Shown here piece after piece: positions 5,392 through 22,893 of a stretch of 64,000 nucleotides of DNA. The notes under the pieces are model-generated. The model did not search any database. It saw nothing but the letters and a program-made list of their open reading frames with translations, and had not been told where the DNA came from. The translations under genes and the position numbers were made by a program. Source of the DNA: Candidatus Bathyarchaeota archaeon (GTDB taxonomy: Archaea; Thermoproteota; Bathyarchaeia; Bathyarchaeales; Bathyarchaeaceae); the NCBI GenBank assembly GCA_030608565.1, contig JAUWDY010000001.1:15457-79456 (forward strand), given 5' to 3'. Position 1 is the stretch's first letter. The number at the start of each line of letters is the position of its first letter.

Positions 5392-5566
5392 ATGCATGCA
5401 TAGAGTAAGATATAAGGTGTTAACTTTTCTAACTTCTAATTGTCGTTTCACTTTTATCTAACTGGAGCAAATATACATGCATGCTCACCTTTATAGCAAC
5501 CCAAAAGTGACCGAAATCCCCTATCCTTTTCATGTACTTTTCTTCTGCTTGTCATCATGCATGCAA
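5392..5566. repeat. cluster of three (ATGC)n palindromic motifs
   Basis: atgcatgcat (5392-5401), catgcatgc (5476-5484) and catgcatgca (5557-5566), in the 500-bp non-coding gap upstream of the stomatin gene. Confidence 0.8.
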
Positions 5567-5822
5567 AAATATAGGTTTTCACATTGGTTTTACACATAAA
5601 TGATTGGTTTTTTCCTATGATTTAGACTTGATAATTTTTTGTCAACTAGCGGCTCACAATTTTTAATTTGGAAAACTAGAGAAAATCCAAAATCTATGTG
5701 ACAAGTTGTGAACACCTCTCTTCAGACTCTCTTTCAGCTTCTGTGGTTACTTTTTTAATATCCATGCATTGAATGTATTAAAATAGAAGTGTTAGCTCGT
5801 GACAGCTGTGAGTTGATAGTCG

Positions 5823-6071
5823 ATGCCTTACTATGTCTACATCCTTCTCTGCAAAGACGGCAGCTACTACACTGGATACGCCAAGGATTTCAAACACCGA
5901 GTTGAACAGCACAAAAAGGGTCAAGGCGCCAGATACACAAGAATACATGAAGCTGAAAAGATGGTATACATAGAGGAGTTCAACAGCCGCAGCGAGGCTA
6001 TGAAGAGAGAACACAGAATCAAATCACTCAGCCACAACGAGAAACAACGATTGATCAACAGCCAACAATAA
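5823..6071 (+). CDS. GIY-YIG nuclease superfamily protein (small stand-alone, UPF0213/YhbQ-like)
   Basis: 82 aa. YYVYILLCKDGSYYTGYAKDFKHRVEQH matches the GIY...YIG...R..(E/Q)H pattern. Confidence 0.8.
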   Translation: MPYYVYILLCKDGSYYTGYAKDFKHRVEQHKKGQGARYTRIHEAEKMVYIEEFNSRSEAMKREHRIKSLSHNEKQRLINSQQ

Positions 6072-6487
6072 AATGCATGCATTCAAACGATGGCGAAGCG
6101 TCTCTTTGTCTAAACCAACACAATCTTTTGTTGAGATATCTAGTGAACTTTCTAAATTTCTAAGAAATAACTTATTCAGAAATATGAATTAGAAAATTAA
6201 GTATGATTTTTCTCTTGTCAAATTCTACAGCTGCTCGAGCGCTCTTCCTTTTTAATTCATTTCTCAGTTTCATCCTTAAGATCTATGCAGTCGCAGCTGC
6301 GATAACTCTCGCTGCAACCTCTATCCATTTTTTGCGTTGAATAAACTCCACATCCCCCAACAATACTTTGGTTCCAATATTGACGGAACTGTCAACTTTC
6401 ATTCTGACGAGCCATTCATGACGCCGATTGTTTGAATAAAAGTTCATTATTGATCAACCTGTCATGCAAACGCGTTCATTGAGGACT

Positions 6488-7735
6488 TCACGAACGCCTC
6501 GTTAAAATGTTGAAGTCGTTAAGATCTATTTTGCGTGTCGCTTGGACGAACCATCCCCAAGATTTGTTCAGATCTCTATTTCGGAAAACTTCAAGATTTG
6601 CTCTTACTTCTGCATCTATGATCACTGGGTCATTCAGGTATAGCTTTGCTTCTCCAACTCGAAATGTCCAAGGATACTTATCTTTATGTTGAACTTTGGG
6701 GTGAGGTTTCTTCTCGGGCCTTGACATTACCTTCGCATGTGCTATAACCCCTTTCCCACTCGCATGGAAGCACAGCCAATCCCCTGGTTTTAAGCGCTTT
6801 CTACCTGGCGTTCTTTCCCCGAAAGCGTATATTTTTTCTTGCCCGACGAGAGTCTGAATCACCTGTTCAGCTGTTGCCTCAGCTTCAGATTTTACAGGTG
6901 TAAGCCAATATTTGGGTTCTCCAGCTTCTATAGGTGGTTCTACTTCAATTGGCAGCTCTTCCAAAGGTGACTGCGCGACTACGCGTGCTATCAGCTCGAC
7001 TACAGGATCAACCCTTGGGCTAGAGGGAAGCAAAATGGCCAATATATCTTCATGGTTGACCTCATATTCGTTCATCATCTCAGCGAGTGAGAGCAAAGAT
7101 TCGACTGAGATAATTCGAAGTTTGTTTGTTCTCCTCTCTGCTATGATAGCATTCTCAAGTTGATTGACTTCAGGGTCCGGACGACCTACAACATAAAGGC
7201 CATATGCATTGTCCCAAGCTGGAATCTTCTTCTCAGAAATCAAGTCGTCCACGTAGCCAACCAACGTTGCCGTTCTTATCGCGTATGTTTCGGTAGTTTT
7301 AGCTTCCACGACAATATGAGCACCTGAAGGTGATTTCCAGTACCCATCAAACCCTATTTTGCCTCTGATCCCATGATACCGCCCGAACTGCACTTCAAAG
7401 CCTAACAAGCTGCCAAGATGATTGACCAGGTCCTGCAATGCCCGATTATATTGGTCACCGGACAGTCTTAAACACTCTTCGGTATAGTCACGGATTTGGC
7501 CAACTTCTTGAACGTTATCTCTCAAGAAGACTCGAAAACGTTCTCTTGGAGTTTCAACTCCAGCCGAGTCATCGAGTTTGCCTACTAGGTTTAGGATTTG
7601 TCGAAGGGATATAGCCGTCCTTTTTCCAATCATGTCACTCAATGTCTGTCCCCTCTTAACTTCAAAGAATCTAGTTATACTAACTGTTAGAGCAGCTTTT
7701 ACGTTTTTATATGCTTTGACCAATCTCTTCCTCAA
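6488..7735 (-). CDS. PD-(D/E)xK restriction-endonuclease-like domain fused to a C-terminal EVE (PUA-like) domain
   Basis: 415 aa. The central motif is GFDGYW...AHIVVEAKT (D...ExK). The C-terminal segment is KYWLTPVKSE..PGDWLCFHASGKGVIAHAKV..YPWTFRVGEAKLYLNDPV, typical of EVE domains. Confidence 0.6.
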   Translation of the reverse strand: MRKRLVKAYKNVKAALTVSITRFFEVKRGQTLSDMIGKRTAISLRQILNLVGKLDDSAGVETPRERFRVFLRDNVQEVGQIRDYTEECLRLSGDQYNRALQDLVNHLGSLLGFEVQFGRYHGIRGKIGFDGYWKSPSGAHIVVEAKTTETYAIRTATLVGYVDDLISEKKIPAWDNAYGLYVVGRPDPEVNQLENAIIAERRTNKLRIISVESLLSLAEMMNEYEVNHEDILAILLPSSPRVDPVVELIARVVAQSPLEELPIEVEPPIEAGEPKYWLTPVKSEAEATAEQVIQTLVGQEKIYAFGERTPGRKRLKPGDWLCFHASGKGVIAHAKVMSRPEKKPHPKVQHKDKYPWTFRVGEAKLYLNDPVIIDAEVRANLEVFRNRDLNKSWGWFVQATRKIDLNDFNILTRRS

Positions 7736-7771
7736 GCAACGACAAGACTAATGCATGCCTGTGGGTGCGAA

Positions 7772-8350
7772 TCAAGCTGACATTTCACTGCAGAGCCCAA
7801 GAATAGGCTCAAAGCCAATCATTATGACAGAAATCGGTTCCTCGGCGGTCCCTCTTCTTCGATATCGTATGTCTTCATCCTGAAATTCACCAATCAAACC
7901 TGGTTGTTTACGGAGTCTATCAGCAACTGCACCTTCAATTCTCTGTCGAATGCGCTCTTCAGCATCAAGAGGAGCCACGAAAATTCTGAATTGCCTTAGA
8001 TACTCATTGATGATTGGTGCCAACTCTAAGTACCGATTCAAAAACTCCAGCATTCGCTTAGGTACTATCTCTCTGTATTCCTTTTTCCACATACCACCCC
8101 ATACAAGCAGTTTAGATCCATTAGCAAGTTGGCGTGGATCATATATTCTGTAATATCCATTCAGGCAGCTTTGTGTGTGCTCTACGAAGCGTTCAGCAAA
8201 TGATCTTCCTGTTTCTCCTACATAGTAGGTCAAGTATTGGTTCTTGAAAGGAACTGTCCATAAATAGATGCCAGGTTGCTTTGCTTCGTGTGTAGTAAAA
8301 ATGGAGTCATCTTCTGTTCCGTAAAACTTGAATGGTCCATACCAGCGCAT
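7772..8350 (-). CDS. GIY-YIG-like nuclease domain protein
   Basis: PGIYLWTVPFKNQYLTYYVGETGRSFAERFVEH. I start it at M86 of the tracked ORF (ATG at 8348-8350), because the first 85 codons of 7772..8605 look like non-coding read-through. It lies 36 nt upstream of, and co-directional with, 6488..7735. Confidence 0.6.
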   Translation of the reverse strand: MRWYGPFKFYGTEDDSIFTTHEAKQPGIYLWTVPFKNQYLTYYVGETGRSFAERFVEHTQSCLNGYYRIYDPRQLANGSKLLVWGGMWKKEYREIVPKRMLEFLNRYLELAPIINEYLRQFRIFVAPLDAEERIRQRIEGAVADRLRKQPGLIGEFQDEDIRYRRRGTAEEPISVIMIGFEPILGLCSEMSA

Positions 8351-8631
8351 TTCATACTTCTTAGAATCCACAAGTCTCGCATCCTTTTTGGTTTCTAATA
8401 CAGCGCGCGTATATTGCTGTTTTCCTGTGCCACCAACTTTTGACAGATGGTGACAATTAGACCACAGCCAGAATTTGAATAACTGTATCCAGAGACTCCT
8501 GATTGCAATGTTGTTGAGTTTTACAATTTTATAAATTACAAACGATATAGAAAACGTAATTTTACAAGAAATTAACCTATTTGTAATTATATTTTGTAGA
8601 ATCAAAGTGTAAGTAGACCATATGAGTAGTC

Positions 8632-9153
8632 TTGGAGGTTATGTACACCAAGGCTAAAGCGATAATAAGAAATAGTCTCTTGCATGAATGCCTGTCTATG
8701 CCTCGCGAGATATCTTGTGGAGCCGTTGTATTCAAGAAGAATCAGGAAGTAAAATATCTTCTCTTGCACTACGAGGAAGGTCATTGGGACTTCGTAAAAG
8801 GTAATATTGAACCGAATGAGAGTGAGAAGGACACAGTCATTAGAGAACTTGAAGAAGAGACCAGCATCATCGAAGCCCAGTTCATTGACGGCTTCAGAGA
8901 GAAGATAAGCTATTTCTATAGAAGAGGAGGCAACACCATCTACAAGGAAGTAGTCTTCTTTCTGATTCAAACACGAGAAAGCAGGGTTGCGTTATCCAGT
9001 GAACACGTAGGATACAAATGGTTAAGTTACCAGAAAGCTACAGAAAGACTCACTTTTAACATTGCTAGAAGCCTATTGAAAAAAGCACACCAGTTCTTAG
9101 AAAATCAAGATATGCATGCACAAGTGGAGAGAACGAAAAAGGCCTTGGATTGA
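8632..9153 (+). CDS. NUDIX hydrolase
   Basis: Nudix box GHWDFVKGNIEPNESEKDTVIRELEEETSI (Gx5Ex7REUxEExGU). The true start may be the internal MPREISCGAVVF. Confidence 0.85.
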   Translation: MEVMYTKAKAIIRNSLLHECLSMPREISCGAVVFKKNQEVKYLLLHYEEGHWDFVKGNIEPNESEKDTVIRELEEETSIIEAQFIDGFREKISYFYRRGGNTIYKEVVFFLIQTRESRVALSSEHVGYKWLSYQKATERLTFNIARSLLKKAHQFLENQDMHAQVERTKKALD

Positions 9154-9849: not shown

Positions 9850-9943
9850 AACGTTTCCTCTGTTTCAAGGTATCTTAACCACTACTTCGTTTTTGATAAA
9901 GCCTTACCTTAAAAGGCTTATATCTCCTCACAAAACTCATTGT

Positions 9944-10111
9944 CTAAAGCTTCTTTATCACCCAAGCTTCATTCTCAACCTCAACAAAATCAACACAATC
10001 TTCAAACTTTCCAATACAATTACACTCAACAAAATGCTTACAGTTTAGACAGATCTCAACTCGCTCACGTTTTAGCTTCCTCTTTAGTTCTTCATCTTTC
10101 ATTTTAATCAT
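9944..10111 (-). CDS. possible small Cys-rich (zinc-ribbon-like) protein, 55 aa
   Basis: Below the ORF-track size cutoff. My translation is MIKMKDEELKRKLKRERVEICLNCKHFVECNCIGKFEDCVDFVEVENEAWVIKKL (CxxC..CxC..C). There is no homology evidence. Confidence 0.3.
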   Translation of the reverse strand: MIKMKDEELKRKLKRERVEICLNCKHFVECNCIGKFEDCVDFVEVENEAWVIKKL

Positions 10112-10130
10112 CAATAAGCACGTGTTTAAT

Positions 10131-10179
10131 AGTTGAATACACTAAAATCCTAAGAATGGAAAATCGTATGTATTCAACT
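10131..10179. repeat. 11-bp perfect inverted repeat (AGTTGAATACA / TGTATTCAACT) with a 27-nt loop
   Basis: Read directly at 10131-10141 and 10169-10179, in the ORF-free gap upstream of the ParB-ASCH gene. Confidence 0.8.
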
Positions 10180-10387
10180 AACTGCTCGTCTACACAAGAT
10201 CAGAAATTGAAACCTGCATGCGGTGTTTCTGAAATGAGCATCAAACCGCGTGTATGGACGCTTCTGTTCTAGACCTTTTTAACATTGCTCAATGTTGATA
10301 TAAGCGTCTAAAAAGCATAAAAGAAATTTGACATCACGCATGCACCACATTTTTTAGTAGGTAAACCCGGATTTAGTAAGGGAAAAA

Positions 10388-11407
10388 ATGTCGCACCAAG
10401 TTCAAGAAATTGAAATAGATAAAATTCATCACAACAAACTCAATCCAAGGCTGGATATAGACTCTCAAGAACTCAATGAACTGGCAGAAACCATTAAGGA
10501 AGTTGGCTTGCTTCAACCGATTATTGTTCGACCAATTGAAAAAGGAGACTACGAAGTTGTTGTCGGGGAAAGACGATATAGAGCTGCTCAACAGGCCGGT
10601 CTAAAAACTGTAAGAGCGTACGTCCGAGACTTCACAGATGAAGAGGTTGTAGAGCTGAATCTAATAGAGAATGTCCAGAGAGCAGATCTCAGTGCAGTAG
10701 AAAAAGGGAATTGCTGTAAGAATTTGATGGATAAATATCCCAAAAGATATCCGACGCTAGCAGCAGTTGGTGGTAGAATAGGAGTTTCTGGCACAACTGT
10801 AAGAAGCTGGCTTCAACTAGTCGAAGCACCTTTGGAACTTCAGAAAATGGTGGCGCCAGCAGCTAAGATAGGGGTTCCCAGAGAATCTGGAAAAATAGAT
10901 TGGGACACTGCAGTAACAATAACTCGACGTGTTAAGCAGCCCGAGAGACAAGTCGAAATCGCTCGAGAAATCGCAAGTAAACCAATCTACAGAAGAGAAG
11001 CAAGGGAAGTTATCGCCAGAGCTGCAATGGAACCTGAGAAGCCGATTAAGGAACTAATCAAAGCAGTTGTTGAAACTCCATATGAACTTCCTTTTAGACT
11101 ATCCCACATGAAACCTATCCTTAACGGTGTCAAAACTCAGACTTCGAGAAAGGGTATACGAGATCCCAAAATCAAAATAGGCGCCAAGATTCATGCTGCT
11201 GTCTGGGAACCTCATTTTGCGGATTTGATCGTCACTTCAATCAATCGTAAGCGATTAGGAGACTTTACTGAGGAGGATGCCAAACGAGAAGGAGGATATA
11301 CCTTAGATGAATTCCGAAAAGTCTGGATTAAAATTCATGGGAAGTGGGATGAAAATGAGTCTGTCTATGTGATCGGTTTCCAAGCAGAAGAAAAAGAGGA
11401 AGAGTAG
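10388..11407 (+). CDS. ParB/Srx N-terminal domain + HTH + C-terminal ASCH domain fusion protein
   Basis: The ParB box is LNPRLDI..LAETIKEVGLLQPIIVRP...VVVGERRYRAAQQAGL. The C-terminal ASCH-like segment is HMKPILNGVKTQTSRKG...AKREGGYTLDEFRKVWIKIHG. Confidence 0.75.
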   Translation: MSHQVQEIEIDKIHHNKLNPRLDIDSQELNELAETIKEVGLLQPIIVRPIEKGDYEVVVGERRYRAAQQAGLKTVRAYVRDFTDEEVVELNLIENVQRADLSAVEKGNCCKNLMDKYPKRYPTLAAVGGRIGVSGTTVRSWLQLVEAPLELQKMVAPAAKIGVPRESGKIDWDTAVTITRRVKQPERQVEIAREIASKPIYRREAREVIARAAMEPEKPIKELIKAVVETPYELPFRLSHMKPILNGVKTQTSRKGIRDPKIKIGAKIHAAVWEPHFADLIVTSINRKRLGDFTEEDAKREGGYTLDEFRKVWIKIHGKWDENESVYVIGFQAEEKEEE

Positions 11408-11409
11408 GA

Positions 11410-12156
11410 ATGTCTTGGAAAAAAGAGTCGATTATTGTCTTGGTCAAAGCCACCCCGATCTGGAGTGCTTCTCTAGGACGATACACAATCTGTACTGCTG
11501 GAATTGCAGAAGACGGAGGATGGCGAAGGTTATACCCATTTACTTGGAGAACAATCAAGAATAATAACATCAGACTATGGGATTCAATATCAGTTGAAAC
11601 CAAAAAACCATCTAGAGACCAGCGCCCTGAAAGTCGGAAAATAAAGAATGATACAGTTGCGAATCTTGGATGTGCAATAAGCAATAGGGAAAAACGACGA
11701 AAATACTTGAATGGACTCACCGATTCTCAGATTCCTAACGCCACCAAAGAAAAGAAAACACTTTCAGTTATCAAACCCATTCTGTTTGAGTTTTCAGTAG
11801 AAAAAAGGGAGGAAAAAGTTGACCAAGCAACGCTTTATGGAGGGGAGTTCAAAAAAAGACCTTATCACAATATTGGAATTTTCTACAAGTTCAAATGCGG
11901 AGAAAAGGGTTGTGGTGTATGTAGAAAGGTTGGGAAATTCCACATAATGGAATGCTTTGATTTTGGAGCAAATCATCTGTACAGACGGTATGATGACGAG
12001 AATGTTGCAGAAGAAAAAGTTCGTGATAAGTGTTTTACGAAAATGAGATTTGATTATGATTGTTGGTTTGCAATGGGAACTCACAGCCTGTATCCCTTTT
12101 TGAGATGGATGGTTATAGGTCTACTATGGATGAAAAAAGCAATACCTACACCTTAG
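11410..12156 (+). CDS. hypothetical protein, Cys-rich (CGEKGCGVC...H..EC)
   Basis: 248 aa. It starts 3 nt after the ParB-ASCH stop, so it is probably co-transcribed. I recognise no family. Confidence 0.5.
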   Translation: MSWKKESIIVLVKATPIWSASLGRYTICTAGIAEDGGWRRLYPFTWRTIKNNNIRLWDSISVETKKPSRDQRPESRKIKNDTVANLGCAISNREKRRKYLNGLTDSQIPNATKEKKTLSVIKPILFEFSVEKREEKVDQATLYGGEFKKRPYHNIGIFYKFKCGEKGCGVCRKVGKFHIMECFDFGANHLYRRYDDENVAEEKVRDKCFTKMRFDYDCWFAMGTHSLYPFLRWMVIGLLWMKKAIPTP

Positions 12157-12285
12157 AATGCATGCATAGGATTTCTATAAAATATGCGTGAAACGGCTTT
12201 TGCAGATACCTTGCATTTTCATTTCGAAACGTTATATTCTGCTTGACACTATTATGAGAAGTCATAACTCTCATGAGGGAGCGTT

Positions 12286-14190
12286 TTGATTGAATCATCA
12301 TTGAGTTCTCAGATAGAAAGAACTGGAAATATCTTGAGAAAGGGTGCGTCTGATCAGATTGTAGATTATAATAGACGCTTCGAGTCTATCAAAGGCCTTT
12401 ATGACACTTTTCTTGCTGATCTACTTGTGTCAGATTTTAGCTACGAGAAAGCCTATGAGACAGCAAAGAGATTCTTGGGTTCTGACAAAGTAGAGTTTGC
12501 AGCGGTTGACGGTACTGAATACACTCGTCCATTGTTTGACATGGTGATATTTTTTGGAGGTTCATACGCTGCTAGAGGTACTATAGAGTTCAAAAAAGAT
12601 AAACCTCCTAAAGTTGAGTATGCAACTCGCTTTCTTGAGCAAGGAAGAGGAATTTCCAGTTGCATACCTCTTTACGTTAACAAGGTTGTAGAAGTTGACA
12701 AGTCACTGAGTCCCATGTTAGAACTTGAACCCACTAGGATCTCTTTAATTAAGCCTTTGACTGACGAGTCAATAGCAAATAATTCATCGATTGCTTCCTG
12801 GATCATGGCTTTTTCGGAAATCTACCTAGCCTATAAACTAGCATCAGAACCAGAAGAAAACATCAAGATCTTGTTTCTTGACAGAAGTCTAACTTGCATG
12901 CAATCAAGTCTGATGTATGACACTTCTAGGAGGAAACGGTGGAAAACACATGGAGCTCTCTTTGGCTATGAAATTGATGGAGAATCTATCGATATGAACG
13001 ATCTTGCATTTGGAAGACATCGGATTCTTAACAAAGATTTAGGGACACCTTCTCCTAGAGGGGACTATCTAAGGTACAGTATTATCTATCTCCTTGAAGG
13101 AAAAGATTCCCATTCGTCTTTTAACGAAATCTGCAGAGAATTGAGCGTTAAAGATGAGAAGAGACGATCAAGGGTTTTGCGATATATCAAGAAGTCTGTG
13201 AAAGAGAATTATCTGGAAGAGAAAGCAGGAAAGTATAAAGTAAATTCCAAGTATAAAACTTCATGGCAACGACTCAAGAAACTCGTTAACATAATCGGGA
13301 AACAACTCTTTGAAGAGATAGTAGATAAAAATCCTCTTCAGGTAAAGAAGGGAGACAAATTCGATTGGTTGACAACACAAGACATTGCTTTTCTGACATT
13401 GTTTTGCATATACATGTTGGTTGAAGAATGCTGGAATAGAAAGATTCTGCTTTTAGGAATAACTAAGGACACTGCTTCTAGAGATTTCAAGAATCATGTT
13501 ATCCCTGTATTTGTTAATCAAAGAATATGGAAACACGTTGTTGATCAAGACAAATTGAGAGATGTTCCAAACACTGACAGGATGTTTCTTCAATCCATTA
13601 GCCTCTTCAACTACCAGAAAGTGAAGGTTCCTTGGAGTTTAGTGGAATATGACTCTGCCTTTCGAACTATAATCCCTGATCTGAAGAAGCGTATGGGCTA
13701 TGTTAGTGGAGCGATTAGAAACAGGATAATTCCTGAGAGACTCTTCGTCAAATCTTATATTCAGCTTTCTCAAGCAAAATCTGATCCTCAACTTCGCAGC
13801 AACGTTTTGTTCATAGATAGACTAGTTTATCCCGATTTTGATCTCAAGAAGGAATTAAGAGTGTCTTTCAAACAGGATTATGGTGGAGCAACTGAACCTA
13901 TTGATGTTATTGTGTTCAGAGATAAGAATATGGATAATGAGGTTCAGAACTTAGTCATGATAATGCTTGAAGCTATGACTAGCCCCAGTATTCCAGAGGT
14001 TTTTGGACATAACAAGCCTTTATTCATAGCTGACAAGGTGGCTAAATGGCATTATGGTCAGGCGAGGAAAATTATAGATACAACTGGACGATGGATTATT
14101 AACCGTCATGATCTTAGAAAGTTTGTGTTTTACATGAGTACGTTTAGGGAAAGGAGGTCACAAATTGAATCTGCAAGAAGAGAAATTTAA
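12286..14190 (+). CDS. NurA-like nuclease domain protein (large, divergent)
   Basis: 634 aa. The N-terminal EFAAVDGTEY resembles the catalytic (I/V)DGS motif of NurA. It overlaps the downstream HerA-like ATPase by 26 nt. Confidence 0.5.
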   Translation: MIESSLSSQIERTGNILRKGASDQIVDYNRRFESIKGLYDTFLADLLVSDFSYEKAYETAKRFLGSDKVEFAAVDGTEYTRPLFDMVIFFGGSYAARGTIEFKKDKPPKVEYATRFLEQGRGISSCIPLYVNKVVEVDKSLSPMLELEPTRISLIKPLTDESIANNSSIASWIMAFSEIYLAYKLASEPEENIKILFLDRSLTCMQSSLMYDTSRRKRWKTHGALFGYEIDGESIDMNDLAFGRHRILNKDLGTPSPRGDYLRYSIIYLLEGKDSHSSFNEICRELSVKDEKRRSRVLRYIKKSVKENYLEEKAGKYKVNSKYKTSWQRLKKLVNIIGKQLFEEIVDKNPLQVKKGDKFDWLTTQDIAFLTLFCIYMLVEECWNRKILLLGITKDTASRDFKNHVIPVFVNQRIWKHVVDQDKLRDVPNTDRMFLQSISLFNYQKVKVPWSLVEYDSAFRTIIPDLKKRMGYVSGAIRNRIIPERLFVKSYIQLSQAKSDPQLRSNVLFIDRLVYPDFDLKKELRVSFKQDYGGATEPIDVIVFRDKNMDNEVQNLVMIMLEAMTSPSIPEVFGHNKPLFIADKVAKWHYGQARKIIDTTGRWIINRHDLRKFVFYMSTFRERRSQIESARREI

Positions 14191-16015
14191 AGCACGTTTC
14201 ACGGATTTCGATGGAAAGTTTCGGGGAAGGCTTAGTGCAGTAATTCCCAAAATGATGATGGGTGAATCTAAGTTTGTGTCAGCAAGGTTTGATTGCAGAG
14301 TGAAGGTGGAATACCAGAAAGACTTGATGGGTCTTCTGGAAGAGGGTATGCTATTGGCTGTGAGGAATTTCAAACCCTCAGAATCTGGAGAAAGGTTTAC
14401 TCTCATGGAAATTTCCAGAGTGTGGCCAGAACACTTCGGGCTTCGAGGTCTAAGAGATTCAAGTTACTATCCAATGCAATTTGAGATCATAGAACAATCA
14501 GAAGGAGATTGGAGTACAGACGACAAATCTACAATGATGGTGCAAATCAGCTCTATACCAATAAACTATGACCTTTTCTTAAAAGAAGATGATTCATGTG
14601 AGTTCAAGAAAGGTTTCTCTTATCCGGTGATTGCAAGTAAAGCCTACATACTGAACAGTAGTATGATCAATCGCATGTACAACCAGAGAATAATCGAAAA
14701 GATGGCCATCGATGTTTCTGGGACAACTGCGGATGCAAGAGCTGATCCTCGTCTCGGAGTTATTAAGATGTTCGAGGCAAGTAAAGCGAGAATTCCTATC
14801 TACATCGACTTTGAAAGCCTTGTTAGGTATCATTTCGGAGTTTTTGCATTCACAGGTGGTGGCAAGAGCAATTTGACGTCAAATATTCTCAGACGGATTC
14901 TCTATCACACTAAAGACACGAAGGTTGTGATCTTTGACATTAGCTGTGAATATCCATTCCTGCTAATGGATGTCTTTGCTGATCCAAACATATCCTCGAA
15001 GATAATACTTGAGAATAGAATAGATATTGTTCAACAGTTCTACGACTCAATAGTCAAACCAAAGGAATACGAAGGTGACAATAGAGTACTTGAAGGCTTG
15101 AAGAAGATATTTGACTTCAAAGACAGAATTGGCTATTATGCCAAGCCTAAGTTAGTGATCCCAAATTATGCAAAATTCCTAGATGAGCTAAAGAACTTAT
15201 GGAAAGGTTCTGCAGACAAGCCCCATTATGTCAATGCTATTGATGAGATTAAAGGTGCTGTGATAAAATACATGGAAGACAACAGATTCGTGGAGAATCA
15301 ACCAATAGACGAAGAATTTGTCAAATTTATACATGAAAAAGCTTCTCAGGCAGTAAATAAGTTCAAAGTAAGTGACAGGAGCGGTTTGTACGCTTGGGGA
15401 AACACAAGAATTGAGTTGCTTGATGTATTTAGAAAGGCACGAGAAGAGGAGCAAAAAGAGATCAAAGGGTTGACAACCCGCAAGATTCAAGGATTGATTC
15501 AAGGGAGAGAGAGACTTGTATGTATATCCATTTCTGACCCGGCTACAATCAAGAGCATCGTTATAGCGCTGACTCGCAATATGCTTGCCGAGAGAAAGCG
15601 AGAATTCAAAGTGAAACCATACGTTCTATTTGTGTTTGACGAGGCTCAAGAGTTTATACCTGCAGGCGCATCAGGGATTGATGGAAGGTGCTCAGGGAGT
15701 GTTGAGACGCTTCTTAGGCAAGGAAGAAAATATGGTCTAGGAGGTTGTGTGGCAACACAGAGAATAGCTTATCTCAATACTAATGCACTGCAACAGTTAC
15801 ATACATATTTCGTTGGCACATTGCCAAGACCTTATGACAGACAGGTAGTAAGCAGCACATTCATGATTGACCAAGGAATTCTGGAGAAGACTCTTGAGTT
15901 TGCACCTGGTGAATGGCTACTGTCCAGTTACATTGCAACAGGAATTGAGAATGTACCCATTTTCATAAGAGCCGACAATGCAGAGACGGAAATCGAAAGT
16001 TTTCTAAGTTTCTAA
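14165..16015 (+). CDS. HerA/FtsK-superfamily (DUF87-type) ATPase
   Basis: 616 aa. Walker A is GVFAFTGGGKSNLTSN and Walker B is VLFVFDEAQEFIP. It also has the GGCVATQRIAYLN segment typical of HerA. The N-terminal region is barrel-like. Confidence 0.75.
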   Translation: MNLQEEKFKARFTDFDGKFRGRLSAVIPKMMMGESKFVSARFDCRVKVEYQKDLMGLLEEGMLLAVRNFKPSESGERFTLMEISRVWPEHFGLRGLRDSSYYPMQFEIIEQSEGDWSTDDKSTMMVQISSIPINYDLFLKEDDSCEFKKGFSYPVIASKAYILNSSMINRMYNQRIIEKMAIDVSGTTADARADPRLGVIKMFEASKARIPIYIDFESLVRYHFGVFAFTGGGKSNLTSNILRRILYHTKDTKVVIFDISCEYPFLLMDVFADPNISSKIILENRIDIVQQFYDSIVKPKEYEGDNRVLEGLKKIFDFKDRIGYYAKPKLVIPNYAKFLDELKNLWKGSADKPHYVNAIDEIKGAVIKYMEDNRFVENQPIDEEFVKFIHEKASQAVNKFKVSDRSGLYAWGNTRIELLDVFRKAREEEQKEIKGLTTRKIQGLIQGRERLVCISISDPATIKSIVIALTRNMLAERKREFKVKPYVLFVFDEAQEFIPAGASGIDGRCSGSVETLLRQGRKYGLGGCVATQRIAYLNTNALQQLHTYFVGTLPRPYDRQVVSSTFMIDQGILEKTLEFAPGEWLLSSYIATGIENVPIFIRADNAETEIESFLSF

Positions 16016-16086
16016 TGTGCAGTTTGGTTTAAAAAATCTTGTAAACCTCTAGAATTTTCTTTTAGTTAGAAATTGGGAAGTTAGAA
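16001..16086. repeat. island intergenic repeat, copy A
   Basis: TTTCTAAGTTTCTA...GTTTGGTTTAAA...TTAGTTAGAAATTGGGAAGTTAGAA. The left core overlaps the last codons (SFLSF*) of the HerA-like gene. Confidence 0.8.
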
Positions 16087-16214
16087 TCCTTAGGAAATTT
16101 TCTTTCGATTTTTTCTTATTTATCTTTATAATATTGATATGAGAGATTCTCAAAACAAAATCTTTCAGAGAAAGATCAGAACTATCAACCAAAATATTTG
16201 TATTATAGTTTTTC

Positions 16215-16232
16215 TACTATAATATTATAGTA
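16215..16232. promoter_or_regulatory. perfect 18-bp palindrome TACTATAATATTATAGTA (candidate operator)
   Basis: Verified by hand to be self-complementary. It lies 58 nt upstream of the wHTH gene start at 16290, in a TATA-rich spacer. Confidence 0.6.
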
Positions 16233-16289
16233 AATAATATATAATGTTATAGTTAGAACACTATATAACACTATACGAGTGAGACTAAT

Positions 16290-17354
16290 ATGGACACTAC
16301 AACCTTCCGAATCTTAGATACGATATCTGCAGGATTAGGTAAATCTTTTTCAATTAACCAATTAACTGCAAAGATCAAGGAGAGACATGGCACTGCTCAT
16401 TATGCAAATATCTACAAAAAGTTACACGAGCTAGAAAGACAACAGATCTTAGACTTGAACAAAATAGGAAAGTCCTCTATTGTTAGATTGAACTTCCAGA
16501 ACTATCTATTGATCGATTTACTAACGGAAATGGAGATAAAAAAGAAACTAGAATTTCTACAAGAAAAAACTGATCTTCAGATGCTTCTTCAAGAAATGTA
16601 TAGATATCTGAACAAAATGTATAGCATAAAATCAATCTGCTCCGTGAATCCAAAGAAGAATATAAAGCTCAATAGATTAGAGTTGTTGTTTCTTCTGAAA
16701 ACCTCTAAGGAAGAGTCACTCACACAAGATGAGATAACCAAAATTCTCAATGGACTACAAAAACTGCAAAATAAACACAATCTGAGAATCGATTGTCTTC
16801 TACTTGAAGAGTATGAGTTTTTAAATCTTCTAGAATCAGATGAAATAAACCCCCTCAAAGAAATTCTCTCTGATAAAATAGCTTTCTTCTGTCCTCAAGC
16901 ATTCTGGGATGAGATTCGAGGAATTATTGACAGAGGAATAGAAGTCATAACTAAGGAAAGGGAAACGAAACCTGCAGAGATTACTGAAGTGGATCTAATC
17001 TACAATCTTGCAAGGTTTGGGTATAAGGAATTTGGCTCAAGAATAAGACAAGGACAAAAATTCTGCATTGAGTACATAATCATGGCACTATTGATGCAAA
17101 ATGATGTGAGGCGTATCGAAGCTGTACCGATAATTCTCGCAAAACATAATACCAACAGTAGTCTCTTGCTATTTCTAGCTCAAAAATATAGGCTGTCGGG
17201 AAGATTGCTGGGCCTGTTGAAAATCCTAGAAAAAACAAAGCCAATGAAAGAGATCAAGAAGACGATAAAACTTCTTGAAGCCTTGAATGTAGAGGAGATA
17301 AAGGCAGACGAAGAAAGCATTCTACAAAAGATGAGGCTATACAATGCCGCTTGA
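16290..17354 (+). CDS. winged-helix (wHTH) N-terminal domain protein, partner of the downstream nucleotidyltransferase (AbiEi-like role proposed)
   Basis: 354 aa. The N-terminal FRILDTISAGLGKSFSINQLTAKIKE...YKKLHELERQQIL has a wHTH-like pattern. It overlaps the next gene by 11 nt. Confidence 0.45.
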   Translation: MDTTTFRILDTISAGLGKSFSINQLTAKIKERHGTAHYANIYKKLHELERQQILDLNKIGKSSIVRLNFQNYLLIDLLTEMEIKKKLEFLQEKTDLQMLLQEMYRYLNKMYSIKSICSVNPKKNIKLNRLELLFLLKTSKEESLTQDEITKILNGLQKLQNKHNLRIDCLLLEEYEFLNLLESDEINPLKEILSDKIAFFCPQAFWDEIRGIIDRGIEVITKERETKPAEITEVDLIYNLARFGYKEFGSRIRQGQKFCIEYIIMALLMQNDVRRIEAVPIILAKHNTNSSLLLFLAQKYRLSGRLLGLLKILEKTKPMKEIKKTIKLLEALNVEEIKADEESILQKMRLYNAA

Positions 17355-17850
17355 CAAAAGTCGTTTGCTTGATTTCCTAGCGGTTTTGGATGTTGAACTC
17401 AATAGGAAAATCACAGTCGTGGCAGTTGGCGGCACTGCAATGACGCTTCTCGATCTGAAACCTTCAACAGTTGACATTGACTTCACTGTGCTAAACGCGG
17501 ATTATGATGATTTCAATAAGGCCTTGGCAAATCTTTCGCATGGTTTCAAAGTGGACGTATATACAGATGGAATGATCTTCAGTCAAGCTCTTCCTGACGA
17601 CTACTTGGAGAAGAGTGTCCCGATAACTAGCTTCCAGCACATAAACTTGAAAGCTCTTCATCCGGTTGACATAGTAGTAACGAAAATTGGAAGACTAGAC
17701 CAAAGAGACATTCAAGATATCGAAGCTTGTGTTAAGAAATCTAAGCTCTCAAAGACCCAAGTTGAGGAAAGAGCGAATCAGGTTCAATATGTGGGTCGAG
17801 AAGAGAACTACAAATACAATCTGCAATACGTTTTGAAGGAAATGTTCTGA
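17344..17850 (+). CDS. nucleotidyltransferase-fold protein (AbiEii/MNT-like)
   Basis: 168 aa. VVAVGGTAMTLLDLKPSTVDIDFTV fits the hG[GS]x9-14DhDh minimal NTase motif. Confidence 0.6.
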   Translation: MPLDKSRLLDFLAVLDVELNRKITVVAVGGTAMTLLDLKPSTVDIDFTVLNADYDDFNKALANLSHGFKVDVYTDGMIFSQALPDDYLEKSVPITSFQHINLKALHPVDIVVTKIGRLDQRDIQDIEACVKKSKLSKTQVEERANQVQYVGREENYKYNLQYVLKEMF

Positions 17851-17899
17851 GTATTCGATATTCTAGTTTCACCAGAAATTGTTACAATCGGAAGTTTGT

Positions 17900-17987
17900 T
17901 TTCTAAGTTTCTACTTTATAATCAAGTTTAAGATTTTATAAACTTCTAATTTTTATTTGGAATTAGGAAGTTAGAAGTTGGAAAGTT
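17900..17987. repeat. island intergenic repeat, copy B
   Basis: TTTCTAAGTTTCTACTTTATAATCAAGTTTAAGATTTTATAAACTTCTAA...GGAATTAGGAAGTTAGAAGTTGGAAAGTT, between convergent stop codons (17850 and 18009). Confidence 0.8.
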
Positions 17988-18008
17988 AAAATCGAGGGCT
18001 CAATCCTG

Positions 18009-18941
18009 CTATTTACGTAGATTAAGTCTATTCAAAATCCGTCTAGTGTTTTCCAGTACCCACATAGTGGTGAGTCTATTCGGTATGTCTCCACGGTGAA
18101 CAGCCAAATTTCTGACATATGACACTTCCTGAAGCGCGCGCGCTTCGTGCTTATCAACAACTCCAAACTTCAGGGCCAACTGCAACAAAACTCCCAGAGA
18201 TTTCCTTTTTGCGCTCACATCTTTCATTCTTAATGCTTCTTCCAAGGCTAACTCAAGGGCTATCGTAGTCCTAACTAAGCATTCAAGGTAGTTTCCTGTT
18301 CTAAAGGCTATATCAGCTCCTGCCAAAGGTTCTTCAACAGCAGGTTTTGTCGATGCTGATTGCTTCTCTTCTTTGATAAGTCTCCGGACTTCCTTCTTCT
18401 TTTGTTTTCTTGTTTCAAGACCATCTTGTAGAGTCTCGAAAATGAATCTTCTCAGATCATTAGCCACTTGTTCATAGAGATCCTCTTTTCCACGAAACTG
18501 ATGGTATTTGAATTGACTCTTAAGGTCTTCTTCGATGAATTTGGTGAGTTTTTGGTCTCTTCGTTTAACCTTCTTAACATAGGTTAGACAGGGTTTCCGA
18601 TATCTCACTGCTTCTTTGTACTCTTTCATAGCTATTTCGGAATATTCACGCCCAAAAACACCAACATAGATATCAGAATTTCTGACCGCCTTGAGTGATG
18701 CTTCCAGAACATCCCTTGAGTCAGCTCCCATATTTTCAAGCGGTACACACGCTAAGAACGGAATACTGGAGATTACTTTAGCTAGCCTGTTTCGTTCCTT
18801 CTCAAATTCTTCTTGGTCTGAACTCAAAAAGATATCGAGGCTTTTTCGTGGCATTTTCCTTACATCTGTTGTTTTCTTGTCTTGATTTATAATTCTTCGT
18901 ATACAAACTCGTAACCTACTATGTGTTGTCTTGAATTTCAA
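18009..18941 (-). CDS. DUF4062 (TIR/deoxyribosyltransferase-like) N-terminal domain + C-terminal HEPN domain protein
   Basis: The N-terminus IFLSSDQEEFEKERNRL...NSDIYVGVFGREY matches the DUF4062 pattern. The C-terminus has the Rx4H motif YVRNLAVHRGD. The likely start is M30 (18854). Confidence 0.6.
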   Translation of the reverse strand: MKFKTTHSRLRVCIRRIINQDKKTTDVRKMPRKSLDIFLSSDQEEFEKERNRLAKVISSIPFLACVPLENMGADSRDVLEASLKAVRNSDIYVGVFGREYSEIAMKEYKEAVRYRKPCLTYVKKVKRRDQKLTKFIEEDLKSQFKYHQFRGKEDLYEQVANDLRRFIFETLQDGLETRKQKKKEVRRLIKEEKQSASTKPAVEEPLAGADIAFRTGNYLECLVRTTIALELALEEALRMKDVSAKRKSLGVLLQLALKFGVVDKHEARALQEVSYVRNLAVHRGDIPNRLTTMWVLENTRRILNRLNLRK

Positions 18942-19021
18942 ACCTGTGGAAGTATGGAGAAACTGAAGGGAACAGAGAGGCTGGGGAGAGACCTACTCTG
19001 TGGAGTATCCGATAGTAATCG

Positions 19022-19471
19022 TTATTCGTACCATTCTTCTTCTGCTTCAGGATAATACGATAGGAAGTCACCTTGCATATATACGGGCTGTATCTCTTCC
19101 CGTACTCGTAATCGCTTTGCTCCAGAAACAAATACTAATCCGAAGCCGCTCCTTTCACATTTCTCACTTACACGTTCAGAATCCTTCTTGTACTCGTCGA
19201 AAGGAAGAGCAAGCCACTTGTAGTTACCCTTATACTTCGCCAACTGCCTGAAACCGTGAAATTTCGAGAATGCTCTTGTTAGGGTAGATTCTGCTTCAAA
19301 AACATGAAGGCAATCTCTGCGCGCCTGTATGAACATGAGGTCAGGTCTTTTAAATCGTAAATCTGTAGCTTCAGGCTTTGTCATTCGGGAGACATCGTAG
19401 TTTCGTAAGAAATATCTTTCGATTGCTTTGATCATTCTGCTTTCCCTCAGCATTTCGACCGACCTATGCAC
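19022..19471 (-). CDS. hypothetical protein, possibly a degenerate PD-(D/E)xK fold
   Basis: 149 aa. KRPDLMFI...HVFEAES is only loosely nuclease-like. It sits between the TIR gene and the DUF4062-HEPN gene on the same strand. Confidence 0.35.
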   Translation of the reverse strand: MHRSVEMLRESRMIKAIERYFLRNYDVSRMTKPEATDLRFKRPDLMFIQARRDCLHVFEAESTLTRAFSKFHGFRQLAKYKGNYKWLALPFDEYKKDSERVSEKCERSGFGLVFVSGAKRLRVREEIQPVYMQGDFLSYYPEAEEEWYE

Positions 19472-19477
19472 ACACGT

Positions 19478-19987
19478 TCATTTTTTCCTAAATGCAAAAT
19501 ACAGGATAATCCCAAGTAGTACTAAGAAGGCAACAGCGGTTATCATCGTAAACATTTCTTCACGTTTCTGAATCTCGGATTCCAATCGGAGCTTGAGATC
19601 TGACACATAAGAAGCCACCTTGCTGATTGCTTGTTTTGGGTTAGCTTTGTCAAAAAGTATGTACTCGAGCCCAGCGAGGAGCCCTCCGATTTTCTTTTCG
19701 ATTTTCCTCTCCACCATTGGAATTATCGGTTTTTTGATTATTCTAGCTGCACCTATTTCTTGATTCACAAATTGAGAACGGGTTCCCATATAGGTTAGCA
19801 ATACAACCATACAGTCAGAGGATTTTATGTTATCGATAATCTTTTGGGGCAGGTTCTTCCCGGGTTGAAGATGCTCTTCAGCCAAGTAGACAATCATTCC
19901 CGCTTTCTTAAGGTCGTCTCGAATGCTCGTGACTAGTTTCATATCCCTTGTACTGTGACTAACAAAAACTTTGTATCTCATGAGCAA
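19478..19987 (-). CDS. TIR domain protein with a C-terminal transmembrane helix
   Basis: 169 aa. It has YKVFVSHSTRDMKLV...DCMVVLLT...SQFVNQEIGAA with a candidate catalytic Glu, and a C-terminal hydrophobic helix ITAVAFLVLLGIILYFAF. Confidence 0.7.
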   Translation of the reverse strand: MLMRYKVFVSHSTRDMKLVTSIRDDLKKAGMIVYLAEEHLQPGKNLPQKIIDNIKSSDCMVVLLTYMGTRSQFVNQEIGAARIIKKPIIPMVERKIEKKIGGLLAGLEYILFDKANPKQAISKVASYVSDLKLRLESEIQKREEMFTMITAVAFLVLLGIILYFAFRKK

Positions 19988-19998
19988 CGACCGAATTC

Positions 19999-20084
19999 TT
20001 TCTAAGTATCTATTTTATAGTTTGGTTTAGAGAATATAAGCTTCTAAGATTCTTCCTTACCTTGGAAATTATAAAGTTAGAAAC
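19999..20084. repeat. island intergenic repeat, copy C
   Basis: TTTCTAAGTATCTATTTTATAGTTTGGTTTAGAGAATATAAGCTTCTAAG...GGAAATTATAAAGTTAGAAAC, between divergent gene starts. Confidence 0.8.
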
Positions 20085-20092
20085 TCTCTCGG

Positions 20093-20641
20093 TTGAGCAA
20101 CATGGCAGTGAAACATCATACATTTGTTTGTGGCACTTCAAAGAGTAAAACGGAGGATGCGTATTATATTAGAGCCAAAAATCGATTCTGGCGTAGCCTC
20201 TGCGAAGCAGATATTACCGATAGACAACTTGAGCCAAAGGAATATCGAATACTAGGTAAGAAATATGGAATCTACCTGACAGATATTGTTGATCGTGACA
20301 GTTATATCATAAGATATGATAGGAAAATAGAACCTTTTCATCTGAAAGATGGCTTGAAGAAATTATTCCATAAAATCGATGAAGAGAAGCCAAAGAGAAT
20401 TGGTTTTACTGGGAAGAATGCTGCAACTTGGTTCTATCGATATTTGAATGATCTGGAATTAACAAAGTCTAATAATCCTGCACATAAACGAATTAGAAGC
20501 AATCTGGGAGATTACGGTCTTTTAGATTGGAAATATAAGAACGTAGACTATTCCTTGCTAACTAACACTCACAGAGACTGGCTGCCAGAAATATGGTTGG
20601 ATTTCTGGCAACGTTGCAAGTATGATGTGGATCATTTGTGA
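20093..20641 (+). CDS. uracil-DNA glycosylase superfamily protein (MUG/TDG-like, divergent)
   Basis: 182 aa. NRFWRSLCEADIT..LEPKEY..LGKKYGIYLTDIVDR resembles the MUG NxFW...G(I/L)T(D/N)L(V/I)xR pattern. The canonical GINPG motif is not conserved. Confidence 0.5.
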   Translation: MSNMAVKHHTFVCGTSKSKTEDAYYIRAKNRFWRSLCEADITDRQLEPKEYRILGKKYGIYLTDIVDRDSYIIRYDRKIEPFHLKDGLKKLFHKIDEEKPKRIGFTGKNAATWFYRYLNDLELTKSNNPAHKRIRSNLGDYGLLDWKYKNVDYSLLTNTHRDWLPEIWLDFWQRCKYDVDHL

Positions 20642-20698
20642 GCGTAAGAGAGTAGGAAAAGGAGGAAATGACAATGCATGCAGGCCAGCTCTAACAGA

Positions 20699-20732
20699 TT
20701 TCTAAGTTTTTACTTTATATTGAGTTTAAAGC
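20699..20732. repeat. island intergenic repeat, copy D (left half only)
   Basis: ATTTCTAAGTTTTTACTTTATATTGAGTTTAAAG, between convergent stop codons. Confidence 0.7.
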
Positions 20733-20734
20733 AT

Positions 20735-21202
20735 TCATGCAATTAGTTTTGCAGCTTGGTTCTCTCGCTTGGTTATCGGATTGACTGATCGTCCATATTC
20801 AGCGATTCCAGCAAGAACAAGTATGTCACATATGTGTGGTGCTGACTTCAAATCTACATGGCGATCTGGATAGATTTCTTTTGCCTTCTTCTGGATTTGC
20901 CATTCTATCGTGTCTGGATCATCAGCATAGAATCTTGTTCCTAATCTAGTCCATCTGCCTCTGTTTCTTCTGAGGACTTCCAGAGCGGTCTCAAATCTCC
21001 AGAACTCCAATCTCAGGACTGTAAATTGTTTACTGAACTCTATTTCTATGAACTGTTTTACCTCATTAACACGAATTATCTTGAAACGTTGAGTTTTCGT
21101 CTTGAAGATAGTTCCTCTAGGTGAATCTAAAGACTGGCTACGATTCGACTTCAGCCATTTTAGGAGACTTTCATCCATCAATCTTACCGCCTTACAATAC
21201 AA
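20735..21202 (-). CDS. hypothetical protein
   Basis: 155 aa single-gene cassette flanked by repeat copies D and E. I recognise no family. Confidence 0.4.
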   Translation of the reverse strand: MYCKAVRLMDESLLKWLKSNRSQSLDSPRGTIFKTKTQRFKIIRVNEVKQFIEIEFSKQFTVLRLEFWRFETALEVLRRNRGRWTRLGTRFYADDPDTIEWQIQKKAKEIYPDRHVDLKSAPHICDILVLAGIAEYGRSVNPITKRENQAAKLIA

Positions 21203-21207
21203 TTGAG

Positions 21208-21283
21208 GTTTCTAAGCTTCTAGTTTATAAGTTAAGGTTTTTATAGACTTCAAGTTTTTCCTTTGGCTTAGAAAGTTATAAAC
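21208..21283. repeat. island intergenic repeat, copy E
   Basis: GTTTCTAAGCTTCTAGTTTATAAGTTAAGGTTTTTATAGACTTCAAG...GGCTTAGAAAGTTATAAAC, between divergent gene starts. Confidence 0.8.
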
Positions 21284-21317
21284 TCAAAAGACTCTAGATA
21301 ATCTTTGAGCGATAAAA

Positions 21318-21971: not shown

Positions 21972-21974
21972 ACG

Positions 21975-22844: not shown

Positions 22845-22893
22845 TGTGCGTTTAATAATTAATTCGGTGGTCAGGAAATAGGAACTGGTAGGA

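Follow-up and report, generated by a model that had tools for sequence, protein, structure and literature searches.

A co-oriented intergenic repeat in a Bathyarchaeota genomic island as a candidate two-way promoter and cassette junction

Why does one short sequence recur, always on the same strand, between unrelated genes of an archaeal genomic island? Bathyarchaeia are among the most abundant archaea of sediments and have barely been cultivated; to our knowledge there is no genetic system for them, and how they acquire accessory genes and control transcription is almost unknown. The repeat in question occupies intergenic gaps in a 64,000-nt stretch of a Candidatus Bathyarchaeota archaeon (GenBank assembly GCA_030608565.1, contig JAUWDY010000001.1, positions 15,457 to 79,456 of the forward strand), here called the window. 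The original prediction took it for an island-specific boundary between gene cassettes, laid out much as in an integron and placed next to a tyrosine recombinase gene. The reading that we favour, at a probability of about one half, is that the repeat is a two-way promoter/operator that is also the shared junction at which cassettes recombine, via short-homology or general recombination.

Within the window, the 14-mer TTTCTAAGTTTCTA was matched with at most one mismatch at 6149, 16001, 17900, 19999, 20699 and 21209, all on the plus strand; the sole additional match at this threshold, at 50612, fell within an open reading frame (ORF). When up to two mismatches were allowed, 11 matches were found against 1.4 expected, a number reached by none of 100 shuffles. 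The repeat is thus real and beyond chance. The predicted count of at least seven copies was reduced when a family hidden Markov model (HMM) was applied: four copies are full length (C, D, E and G), one is partial (F), one doubtful (B) and one unsupported (A), and the copies are confined to 6-21.3 kb of the plus strand (Table 1). For copy F, the HMM aligned model positions 2-30 only and gave an E-value of 0.1 alone, yet the motif is near exact. Copy B, with a marginal match (6146-6170, E 1.6-9), looks like a decayed, internally deleted copy. The core motifs and inverted arm had been described correctly, as had the convergent gene contexts at 17850|18009 and 20641|20735. The repeat had also been said to supply the end of the HerA-like gene (14165-16015). 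This overlap is real, the first 15 nt of copy C (16001-16015) being the last codons and TAA stop of that gene, and it belongs to copy C, not to a "copy A". Rfam covariance models run on the window returned only two tRNAs at the gathering score and left the element unmatched.

A candidate eighth copy, decayed, may lie upstream of the ParB_N-ASCH gene. The family HMM was not significant at 10262-10340, where the window has element-like remnants only; the left flank (9948-10230), which includes a small Cys-rich ORF, has homologues that adjoin full copies in loci L137 and L087 (such numbers are labels of the individual loci compared). That flank carries an unlisted 56-aa Cys-rich ORF (CxxC...CxC) at 9946-10113 on the minus strand, 74-76% conserved at the nucleotide level in L137 and L087. 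In both loci a full element is located about 145 nt to the right of the ORF; its window counterpart is only a decayed, element-like stretch.

The repeat extends well beyond this genome. GTDB, at one genome per species, was scanned with a degenerate pattern. The pattern gave 68 single matches, mostly chance matches in bacteria, and five real loci: L012, L029, L045, L060 and L063. An HMM built from the four window copies found several full-length copies per locus in L012, L029, L045 and L063, which come from metagenome-assembled genomes (MAGs) labelled Bathyarchaeia or Bathyarchaeota, and likewise in L060, labelled 'Levybacteria'. A scan of JGI metagenomes with the 22-mer at the left end of the element returned 99 stretches, almost exclusively from sediment samples. 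In total, 102 loci, drawn from Bathyarchaeia MAGs and sediment metagenomes, yielded 189 copies with the family HMM; these loci were ascertained via the 22-mer and are mostly a few kb long and partly redundant. An 828-kb contig contributed a single stretch and each MAG one or two; copies are therefore few and clustered per genome. The repeat thus belongs to a widespread family of intergenic elements, about 85 bp long, in sediment archaea, the hosts probably being Bathyarchaeia. The supposed island-specificity accordingly stands inside the window, where the one outside match with at most one mismatch is intragenic, and fails for the wider family in other genomes. We found no account in the literature of such arrays in Bathyarchaeia or other archaea, and the family is apparently undescribed so far.

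Two simple origins were rejected. A chance, AT-rich generic promoter is incompatible with the shuffles and with the full-length HMM matches elsewhere, and a viral origin was discarded on finding 0 copies in IMG/VR. The 6.5-kb contig of L060, also labelled L144 (MFNH01000055.1, Candidatus Levybacteria), holds three co-oriented copies of the element together with a palindromic motif, ATGCATGCA, that is treated below. The contig is probably archaeal and mis-binned into a bacterial MAG of the candidate phyla radiation.

In 109 full copies, the element spans model positions 11-95, with the consensus TTTCTAAGTTTCTAnTTTATAA-N10-ATTTTATAAACTTCTAA-T-rich-TTAGAAAgTTATAAAgTTAGAAA. It contains three TATA-like boxes (TATA-1 to TATA-3), purine-rich stretches resembling the B recognition element (BRE) and five TTCTAA/TTAGAA boxes. 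Motif positions are mostly 80-100% conserved and the spacers are variable, with copies 60-80% alike; conserved motifs with variable spacers indicate selection on the sequence rather than recent copying or a burst. The ends of the consensus form an 11-nt inverted repeat (TTTCTAAGTTT / AAACTTAGAAA), each arm of which is conserved independently, and two back-to-back BRE-like/TATA pairs make positions 45-87 nearly palindromic. Three BRE/TATA motifs, recognised by reference to established knowledge and PMC8707807, were 86-100% conserved: AGAAAg-TTATAAA (75-87, rightward) and, on the minus strand, TTAGAAG-TTTATAAA (59-45) and TTATAAA (32-26).

Is the element read as a folded strand or as a duplex? 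Single-stranded folds of four copies, on both strands, gave z-scores of -1.04 to +0.68 relative to shuffles, and thus no added stability. Across 103 distinct copies, the paired fraction in three candidate pairings equalled the shuffled expectation, and broken pairs far outnumbered compensatory ones. This argues that the element is read by proteins as duplex DNA, not as a hairpin or RNA. The result bears directly on the view that the locus is a divergent integron, whose attC repeats would fold as single strands and be recombined by the neighbouring tyrosine recombinase in the role of IntI. Such a view draws on repeats that bound small modules beside a tyrosine recombinase, and on the resemblance of GTTAGA to GTTRRR. 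Besides the absence of folding and of compensatory change in any inverted pairing, the attC cores RYYYAAC ... GTTRRRY were not found: the ends read TTTCTAAG ... (g/c)TTAGAAA, and at the AAC/GTT-equivalent positions (18/88) G stands against C in 43% and G in 46%. The integrase gave no IntI or NCBIfam match and only a sub-threshold Pfam match, closely related integrases adjoin islands without the repeat, genes lie in both orientations, the repeats carry promoter motifs, and published archaeal integrons have canonical attC sites (PMC9668308). Integron membership is refuted for the features tested (hairpin, cores, IntI and cassette orientation), and we consider this reading exceedingly improbable. 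The repeat had indeed been described as unlike known attC, in keeping with its other core motifs and the lack of hairpin and covariation; the attC-like hairpin that folding of both strands was proposed to reveal did not appear.

The inverted-repeat ends TTTCTAAGTTT / AAACTTAGAAA, the length of about 85 bp, the intergenic position and the multiple copies would also suit a miniature inverted-repeat transposable element (MITE) with outward promoters, like the Correia elements of Neisseria, and MITE remnants had been among the explanations offered. Target-site duplications were sought for k = 2-8 in 36 offset combinations, and matches did not exceed the shuffled control at any offset. Moreover, copies share an orientation and cluster instead of being scattered at random, the Pfam families of adjacent proteins included no partner transposase, and the 60-80% similarity, with its conserved motifs and variable spacers, speaks for selection and not for a recent burst. 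The MITE reading is thus largely refuted, and very unlikely. A dif-like 11-6-11 arrangement was not found either, in a consensus scan with 9-15-bp arms and 4-10-bp spacers. The scan yielded only AT-only pairs of TATA-1 with TATA-2 (7-9-bp spacer, 2-3 mismatches), the inner positions of which are poorly conserved, and a weak pair at 54-57.

Genes flanking the element tend to leave it. They pointed away on 66 of 100 left sides and 65 of 99 right sides; among the 90 copies with genes called on both sides, both pointed away in 40 and both toward the element in 11. Outward start codons peaked 10-40 nt beyond each end, about 20-60 nt from TATA-1 (leftward) or TATA-3 (rightward), a distance that fits short archaeal leaders; start-codon distances and gene directions both come from crude ORF calling. 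Copies E and G of the window conform to this pattern, with starts 18-31 nt from their ends: the TIR gene at 19981 (18 nt left) and the UDG-like gene at 20102/20108 (18-24 nt right) around E, and the 155-aa gene at 21178/21202 (left) and the 217-aa gene at 21318 (right) around G. As a precedent, experiments on halovirus HF2 have proven its 58-bp intergenic repeats to be BRE/TATA promoters (PMC8707807). The original prediction had dismissed a promoter role, pointing to copies between convergent genes. That dismissal does not hold given the outward BRE/TATA-like motifs, the roughly two-thirds of flanking genes that leave and the small convergent minority (11/90). Judged by its motifs, the element looks like a compact bidirectional archaeal promoter/operator, and we infer its activity from them.

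The copies form arrays. Neighbouring copies lie 0.28-6.0 kb apart, nearly all less than 3.7 kb, and adjacent copies had the same orientation in 69 of 80 pairs; after dereplication this held for 46 of 51 intervals, with three more mixed (p ~2e-9). Same-orientation intervals contained one gene (28), two (18) or three (10), which bears out the predicted delimitation of modules of one to three genes. Single-gene intervals were read leftward in 18 cases and rightward in 10. Two-gene intervals were mostly convergent ('><', 11/18), so that each gene would be read from its own flanking element. The cargo is diverse: 208 adjacent proteins fell into 159 clusters, and the 150 representatives carried 109 Pfam families, including nitroreductases, GNATs, HAD and MBL hydrolases, low-molecular-weight phosphatases and many singletons. 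No recurrent recombinase was seen among these families.

Comparison of loci showed that homology frequently stops at the element. Pairs of copies in different loci shared one flank only in 50 cases versus both flanks in 24, and 55 of 104 internal homology end-points lay at an element. Several events are clear in outline. A single element in L112, L117 and L153 corresponds to two elements around a 1.1-kb insert in L076, the crossover lying within the shared 22-mer; the copies on either side of the insert have different 33-42 spacers. L063 and L091 show the same single-versus-double pattern with a 0.9-kb insert, another element of L112 is split by a 1.3-kb insert in L165, and L112 and L143 share their outer flanks around three and two unrelated cassettes, respectively. 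Cassette variability at the repeats across relatives, originally put forward as a test of the cassette layout, was therefore observed, with modules inserted, deleted and replaced there.

The window takes part in this turnover. Its C-D cassette (354-aa protein and DUF6036) occurs in differing surroundings in L086 (92.6% nucleotide identity), L128 (94.6%) and L169 (82%). In L128, a close relative whose ELP3 is 93% identical in amino acids, 4 kb of other genes, without an integrase, replace window positions 17954-25760. Copy D is the break point of the window against both L086 and L128, and one L128 break is inside it: in a three-way alignment, the left 45-55 nt or so of copy D are co-inherited with the DUF6036 cassette, the right part and the sequence beyond differ, and the change-points fall at model positions 25-35 and 55-58. 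Other copies are shared together with part of their surroundings, namely the extended right part of copy C (16001-16134) in L139 and L171, copy G with its left gene in L109, and copy G with two right genes in L167. Overall, most change-points lay at model positions 10-39 and smaller numbers at 54-72 and 73-96; each is an interval bounded by invariant blocks, not a single exact crossover point. Truncated copies end most often at model positions 60-69, and solo 22-mers like copy F also occur in L045, L088, L141 and L020.

Might all this reflect a promoter/operator and nothing more? The element would then control an accessory regulon (stress, detoxification, defence), and the breaks would be incidental, intergenic DNA being tolerant of them. 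The BRE/TATA anatomy and start-codon spacing agree with this, as does cargo enriched in small detoxification-type enzymes (nitroreductases, GNATs, HAD, MBL, LMWPc). Elements also occupy some 30% of intergenic gaps, a rough estimate that was not computed, so that the enrichment of break points over intergenic DNA would be only about 2-fold. A regulon alone, however, leaves unexplained the co-orientation, the single-versus-double element insertions that retain both copies, the clustering in arrays rather than dispersal, the intact copies between convergent genes (D, and 11 cases in the family) and the solo cores. We regard it as unlikely.

A stronger competitor is dedicated site-specific gene capture, in which the element would be the site of a recombinase encoded elsewhere, or of a host Xer-like enzyme, acting on circular cassettes in an integron-like manner. 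The core would be the 22-mer or the inverted arms of TATA-1/TATA-2, and the promoters a built-in expression device. Co-orientation (46/51), seen even though genes leave equally on both sides, is well accounted for in this way, as are the clean single-versus-double insertions with a crossover in the 22-mer and the concentration of change-points at model positions 10-39. Solo 22-mers and half-elements look like products of secondary sites, positions 24-54 contain an inverted pair of 10-12 bp separated by 7 bp, the whole element is very highly conserved, and arrays are few and clustered (one stretch in the 828-kb contig, one or two per MAG). On the other hand, no recombinase is consistently near the arrays, break points fall in at least two to three zones (10-39, 54-72, 73-96), and there is no covariation or folded structure. 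The 33-42 spacer differs between the flanking copies in L076 and so was not a shared overlap region in that event. We therefore rate site-specific capture as possible but well short of probable. Tentatively, it would amount to a previously undescribed archaeal gene-capture system with a hairpin-free, double-stranded site of about 85 bp that doubles as a two-way promoter, its recombinase not beside the array. It might, with the same reserve, be an integron analogue in function with another mechanism, building arrays of accessory and defence cassettes in the chromosomes of Bathyarchaeia.

The reading that we prefer, a promoter/operator serving also as a recombination junction, would work as follows. 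Each repeat would be a conserved double-stranded protein-binding module of about 85 bp, or 'junction element'. The outer left TATA-like box (TTTATAA) would fire leftward and the right BRE-TATA pair (AGAAAG-TTATAAA) rightward, the third, central TATA box forming a near-palindrome with the right one. Archaeal repressors typically act between the TATA box and the start site. It is in this interval, as judged from the predicted start sites, that the five TTCTAA/TTAGAA boxes are found, and they are thus probably sites of a shared regulator; the central T-rich run could terminate incoming rightward transcripts. The element would be the sole sequence common to unrelated modules of one to three genes, and so the place where these are inserted, excised and exchanged. 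Most crossovers are located within the invariant 22-mer TTTCTAAGTTTCTAnTTTATAA or directly after it, with a second break zone at the T-rich centre, and would proceed by general or short-homology recombination across invariant blocks rather than through the adjacent integrase. That break positions spread over several zones rather than one point is consistent with this. Circular DNA inserting at a directional site would explain why array copies point the same way, and why cassettes have inward promoters at both ends, from which a gene could be expressed in either orientation.

Several considerations weigh against this preferred reading. The promoter role is deduced from motif resemblance and from distances that depend on crude ORF calling. 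Of the flanking genes, 34% face the element, and well-conserved copies, D among them, lie where there is no gene to be driven; the information content of about 110 bits is also far above a promoter's need. Strict co-orientation and recurrent breaks in the 22-mer would also be expected from a dedicated site-specific system, and homologous recombination over about 22 bp is inefficient in well-studied bacteria. In addition, ascertainment of the loci by the 22-mer inflates its apparent invariance, most loci span a few kb, so that a distant recombinase gene is possible, and independent recombination events number only about 20.

Table 1. Copies and anatomy of the element, and neighbouring genes in the window
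Feature	Position	Strand	Description
Copy A	5424-5462	+	family membership unsupported; HMM E 31; only TTCTAACTTCTAA there
Copy B	6149-6202	+	doubtful; TTTCTAAATTTCTAAG ... TTAGAAAATTAAG, internal deletion; 14-mer with 1 mismatch
Candidate eighth copy	10262-10340	+	decayed; upstream of ParB_N-ASCH gene; proposed from position and flank homology only
Copy C	16001-16086	+	full length; family HMM E 7.5e-11
Copy D	17900-17985	+	full length; HMM E 8e-15; between convergent genes
Copy E	19999-20084	+	full length; HMM E 4.6e-14; between divergent genes
Copy F	20699-20720	+	solo left core, 22-mer TTTCTAAGTTTTTACTTTATAT; between convergent genes
Copy G	21209-21289	+	full length; HMM E 8e-16; between divergent genes
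Element, left core	model 11-32		TTTCTAAG-TTTCTAc-TTTATAA
Element, spacer	model 33-42		variable spacer
Element, centre	model 43-59		ATTTTATAAAC-TTCTAA
Element, centre	model 60-72		TTTTTTCTTTtgt
Element, right part	model 73-95		TTAGAAAg-TTATAAAg-TTAGAAA
Four-gene putative defence operon	10388-16015	+	cassette-like module; ParB_N-ASCH, PDC-M19B, 634-aa orphan, HerA; Pfam, PADLOC
C-D cassette	16290-17850	+	354-aa protein and DUF6036 nucleotidyltransferase
D-E cassette	18009-19987	-	DUF4062, 149-aa and TIR proteins; read leftward from E
E-F cassette	20093-20641	+	UDG-superfamily protein; read rightward from E
F-G cassette	20735-21202	-	155-aa protein, leftward from G; homologues in L109, L159
Module right of G	21318-24423	+	217-aa (weak HEPN-like), RNase HII-like, TPR-HEPN (LA2681)
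Divergent tyrosine-recombinase-like integrase	24475-25734	-	N-terminal HTH; weak Pfam Phage_integrase match

The window encodes Topo VI-B, ELP3 and FtsZ, has about 43% GC and is archaeal. By their family matches, the genes around its repeats are defence-flavoured (Table 1). In the operon that ends at copy C, the PADLOC candidate PDC-M19B matched at 1e-27, and the 634-aa protein had no family match. Right of copy G, the 217-aa and RNase HII-like genes accompany a G-like copy in L167, and the HEPN gene occurs separately in L125 and L130.

Does the neighbouring tyrosine recombinase act on the repeat, as had been implied? Its PF00589 score of 19.5 bits is below the 27.1 cutoff, its family includes PF00589 proteins, and it gave no PDB sequence match; the gene is probably the island's integrase. 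There were four related integrase loci (L002-L004 and L130), three of them with an intact gene, at 78-85% identity; L002-L004, where the gene lies beside other defence cargo, contained no copy of the element, only the motif ATGCATGCAT. Conversely, when about 100 repeat loci were searched for this integrase by tblastn and a family HMM, only L130 and two weak partial matches were obtained. A direct repeat (att) linking the island edges at ~5370 and 25770-25907 was not found. The element as att site of this integrase was thus rejected, with no copy in L002-L004 and no direct repeat at the edges, and the implied link to the tyrosine recombinase is not supported.

The integrase gene forms a self-contained 1.3-kb module (24447-25770), 80-88% identical in nucleotides in L002, L003, L004 and L130. 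In L002-L004 it adjoins wholly different, partly defence-like cargo (OLD/AAA_15 nuclease, methyltransferase, ParB_N, TIR), and in L130 the adjoining TPR-HEPN gene has the opposite orientation to that in the window. In an independent Logan assembly of SRR14876854, a contig 100% identical to the window ends exactly at 5370 and 25907; such ends, bracketing the variable region, suggest that the population is heterogeneous at each edge.

The palindromic motif ATGCATGCA(T) had 22 matches in the window against 0.45 expected, for example at 859, 1048, 3074, 5392, 5557, 6073, 9156, 12158, 20674, 23964, 42131 and 47709. Those sites that were checked lie between genes, immediately downstream of stop codons, except 23964, which is inside an ORF. 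The motif also occurs in L002, L004, L060, L086 and L128, is dense in related loci and gave no match in 442 kb of unrelated GTDB loci. This lineage-specific intergenic signal is distinct from the repeat and is perhaps a terminator or a regulator site. Separately, a tRNA gene at 48945-49036 on the minus strand scored 56 bits against the Rfam tRNA model, with its anticodon unresolved by ARAGORN, and is probably an intron-containing archaeal tRNA.

For Bathyarchaeia, the element family offers a conserved, portable candidate for a two-way promoter. Its HMM is a sequence tag that locates variable gene arrays in metagenomes, with defence genes in the window and small detoxification or modification enzymes elsewhere. 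The family also provides a testable case of cassette-style gene exchange in Archaea without integron machinery. Should a dedicated recombinase exist, the family would represent a new class of gene-capture system; otherwise, the shared promoter itself would act as the portable homology that shuffles genes.

How does the element compare with known systems? Correia elements and other promoter-bearing MITEs are small intergenic sequences that end in inverted repeats and from which neighbouring genes obtain promoters or terminators. The element is likewise small, intergenic and ended by inverted repeats; it differs in having no target-site duplication, a non-random orientation and clustering in arrays. 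The pdif (Xer) modules of Acinetobacter plasmids are resistance or accessory modules bounded by short sites that alternate in orientation; they pass from one replicon to another by means of a host recombinase encoded elsewhere. Short conserved sites around small accessory modules, with no recombinase nearby, are common to both. In contrast, the element is about 85 bp long and co-oriented (86-90% of neighbours), and the one inverted pair that it has at a spacer of 4-10 bp consists of AT-only TATA sequence, whereas the archaeal XerA/dif site is 28 bp with an 11-6-11 layout (PMC2958812).

Closer parallels exist among promoter repeats. The class I and II intergenic repeats of HF2, 58 and 29 bp long, were shown to be promoters, some of them bidirectional (Russ, Pfeiffer & Dyall-Smith 2021, PMC8707807). 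Like the element, they are archaeal, intergenic, tens of bp long and composed of BRE/TATA plus extra repeat-specific motifs; unlike it, they are viral, keep conserved positions and orientations among relatives and are not reported as cassette junctions, and the sequences are unrelated. Putative mobile promoters are homologous, promoter-like intergenic DNA upstream of non-homologous genes, both inside one genome and among several (Matus-Garcia, Nijveen & van Passel 2012, PMC3488235), a pattern also seen here, where 189 copies adjoin proteins in 159 clusters. That class is defined by similarity and comes without arrays, co-orientation or demonstrated cassette insertions and deletions (PMC3488235).

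Integrons, including the Vibrio cholerae repeats and the archaeal integrons of Ghaly et al. 2022 (PMC9668308), resemble the element arrays in their co-oriented 60-140-bp repeats alternating with a few small miscellaneous genes, in array content that varies among related genomes, in breaks inside the repeat that make each repeat a hybrid of two cassettes, and in being local, with one or few arrays per genome. They differ in that the element has neither folded hairpin nor covariation, ends in TTCTAAG/CTTAGAA rather than RYYYAAC/GTTRRRY, forms arrays without IntI, attI or Pc, and has break positions not confined to one point. The element also carries outward BRE/TATA motifs with genes in both orientations, whereas integron cassettes are mostly promoterless and co-oriented. 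The nearest known concepts are therefore three: integron arrays (PMC9668308), the promoter repeats of HF2 (PMC8707807) and mobile promoters (PMC3488235).

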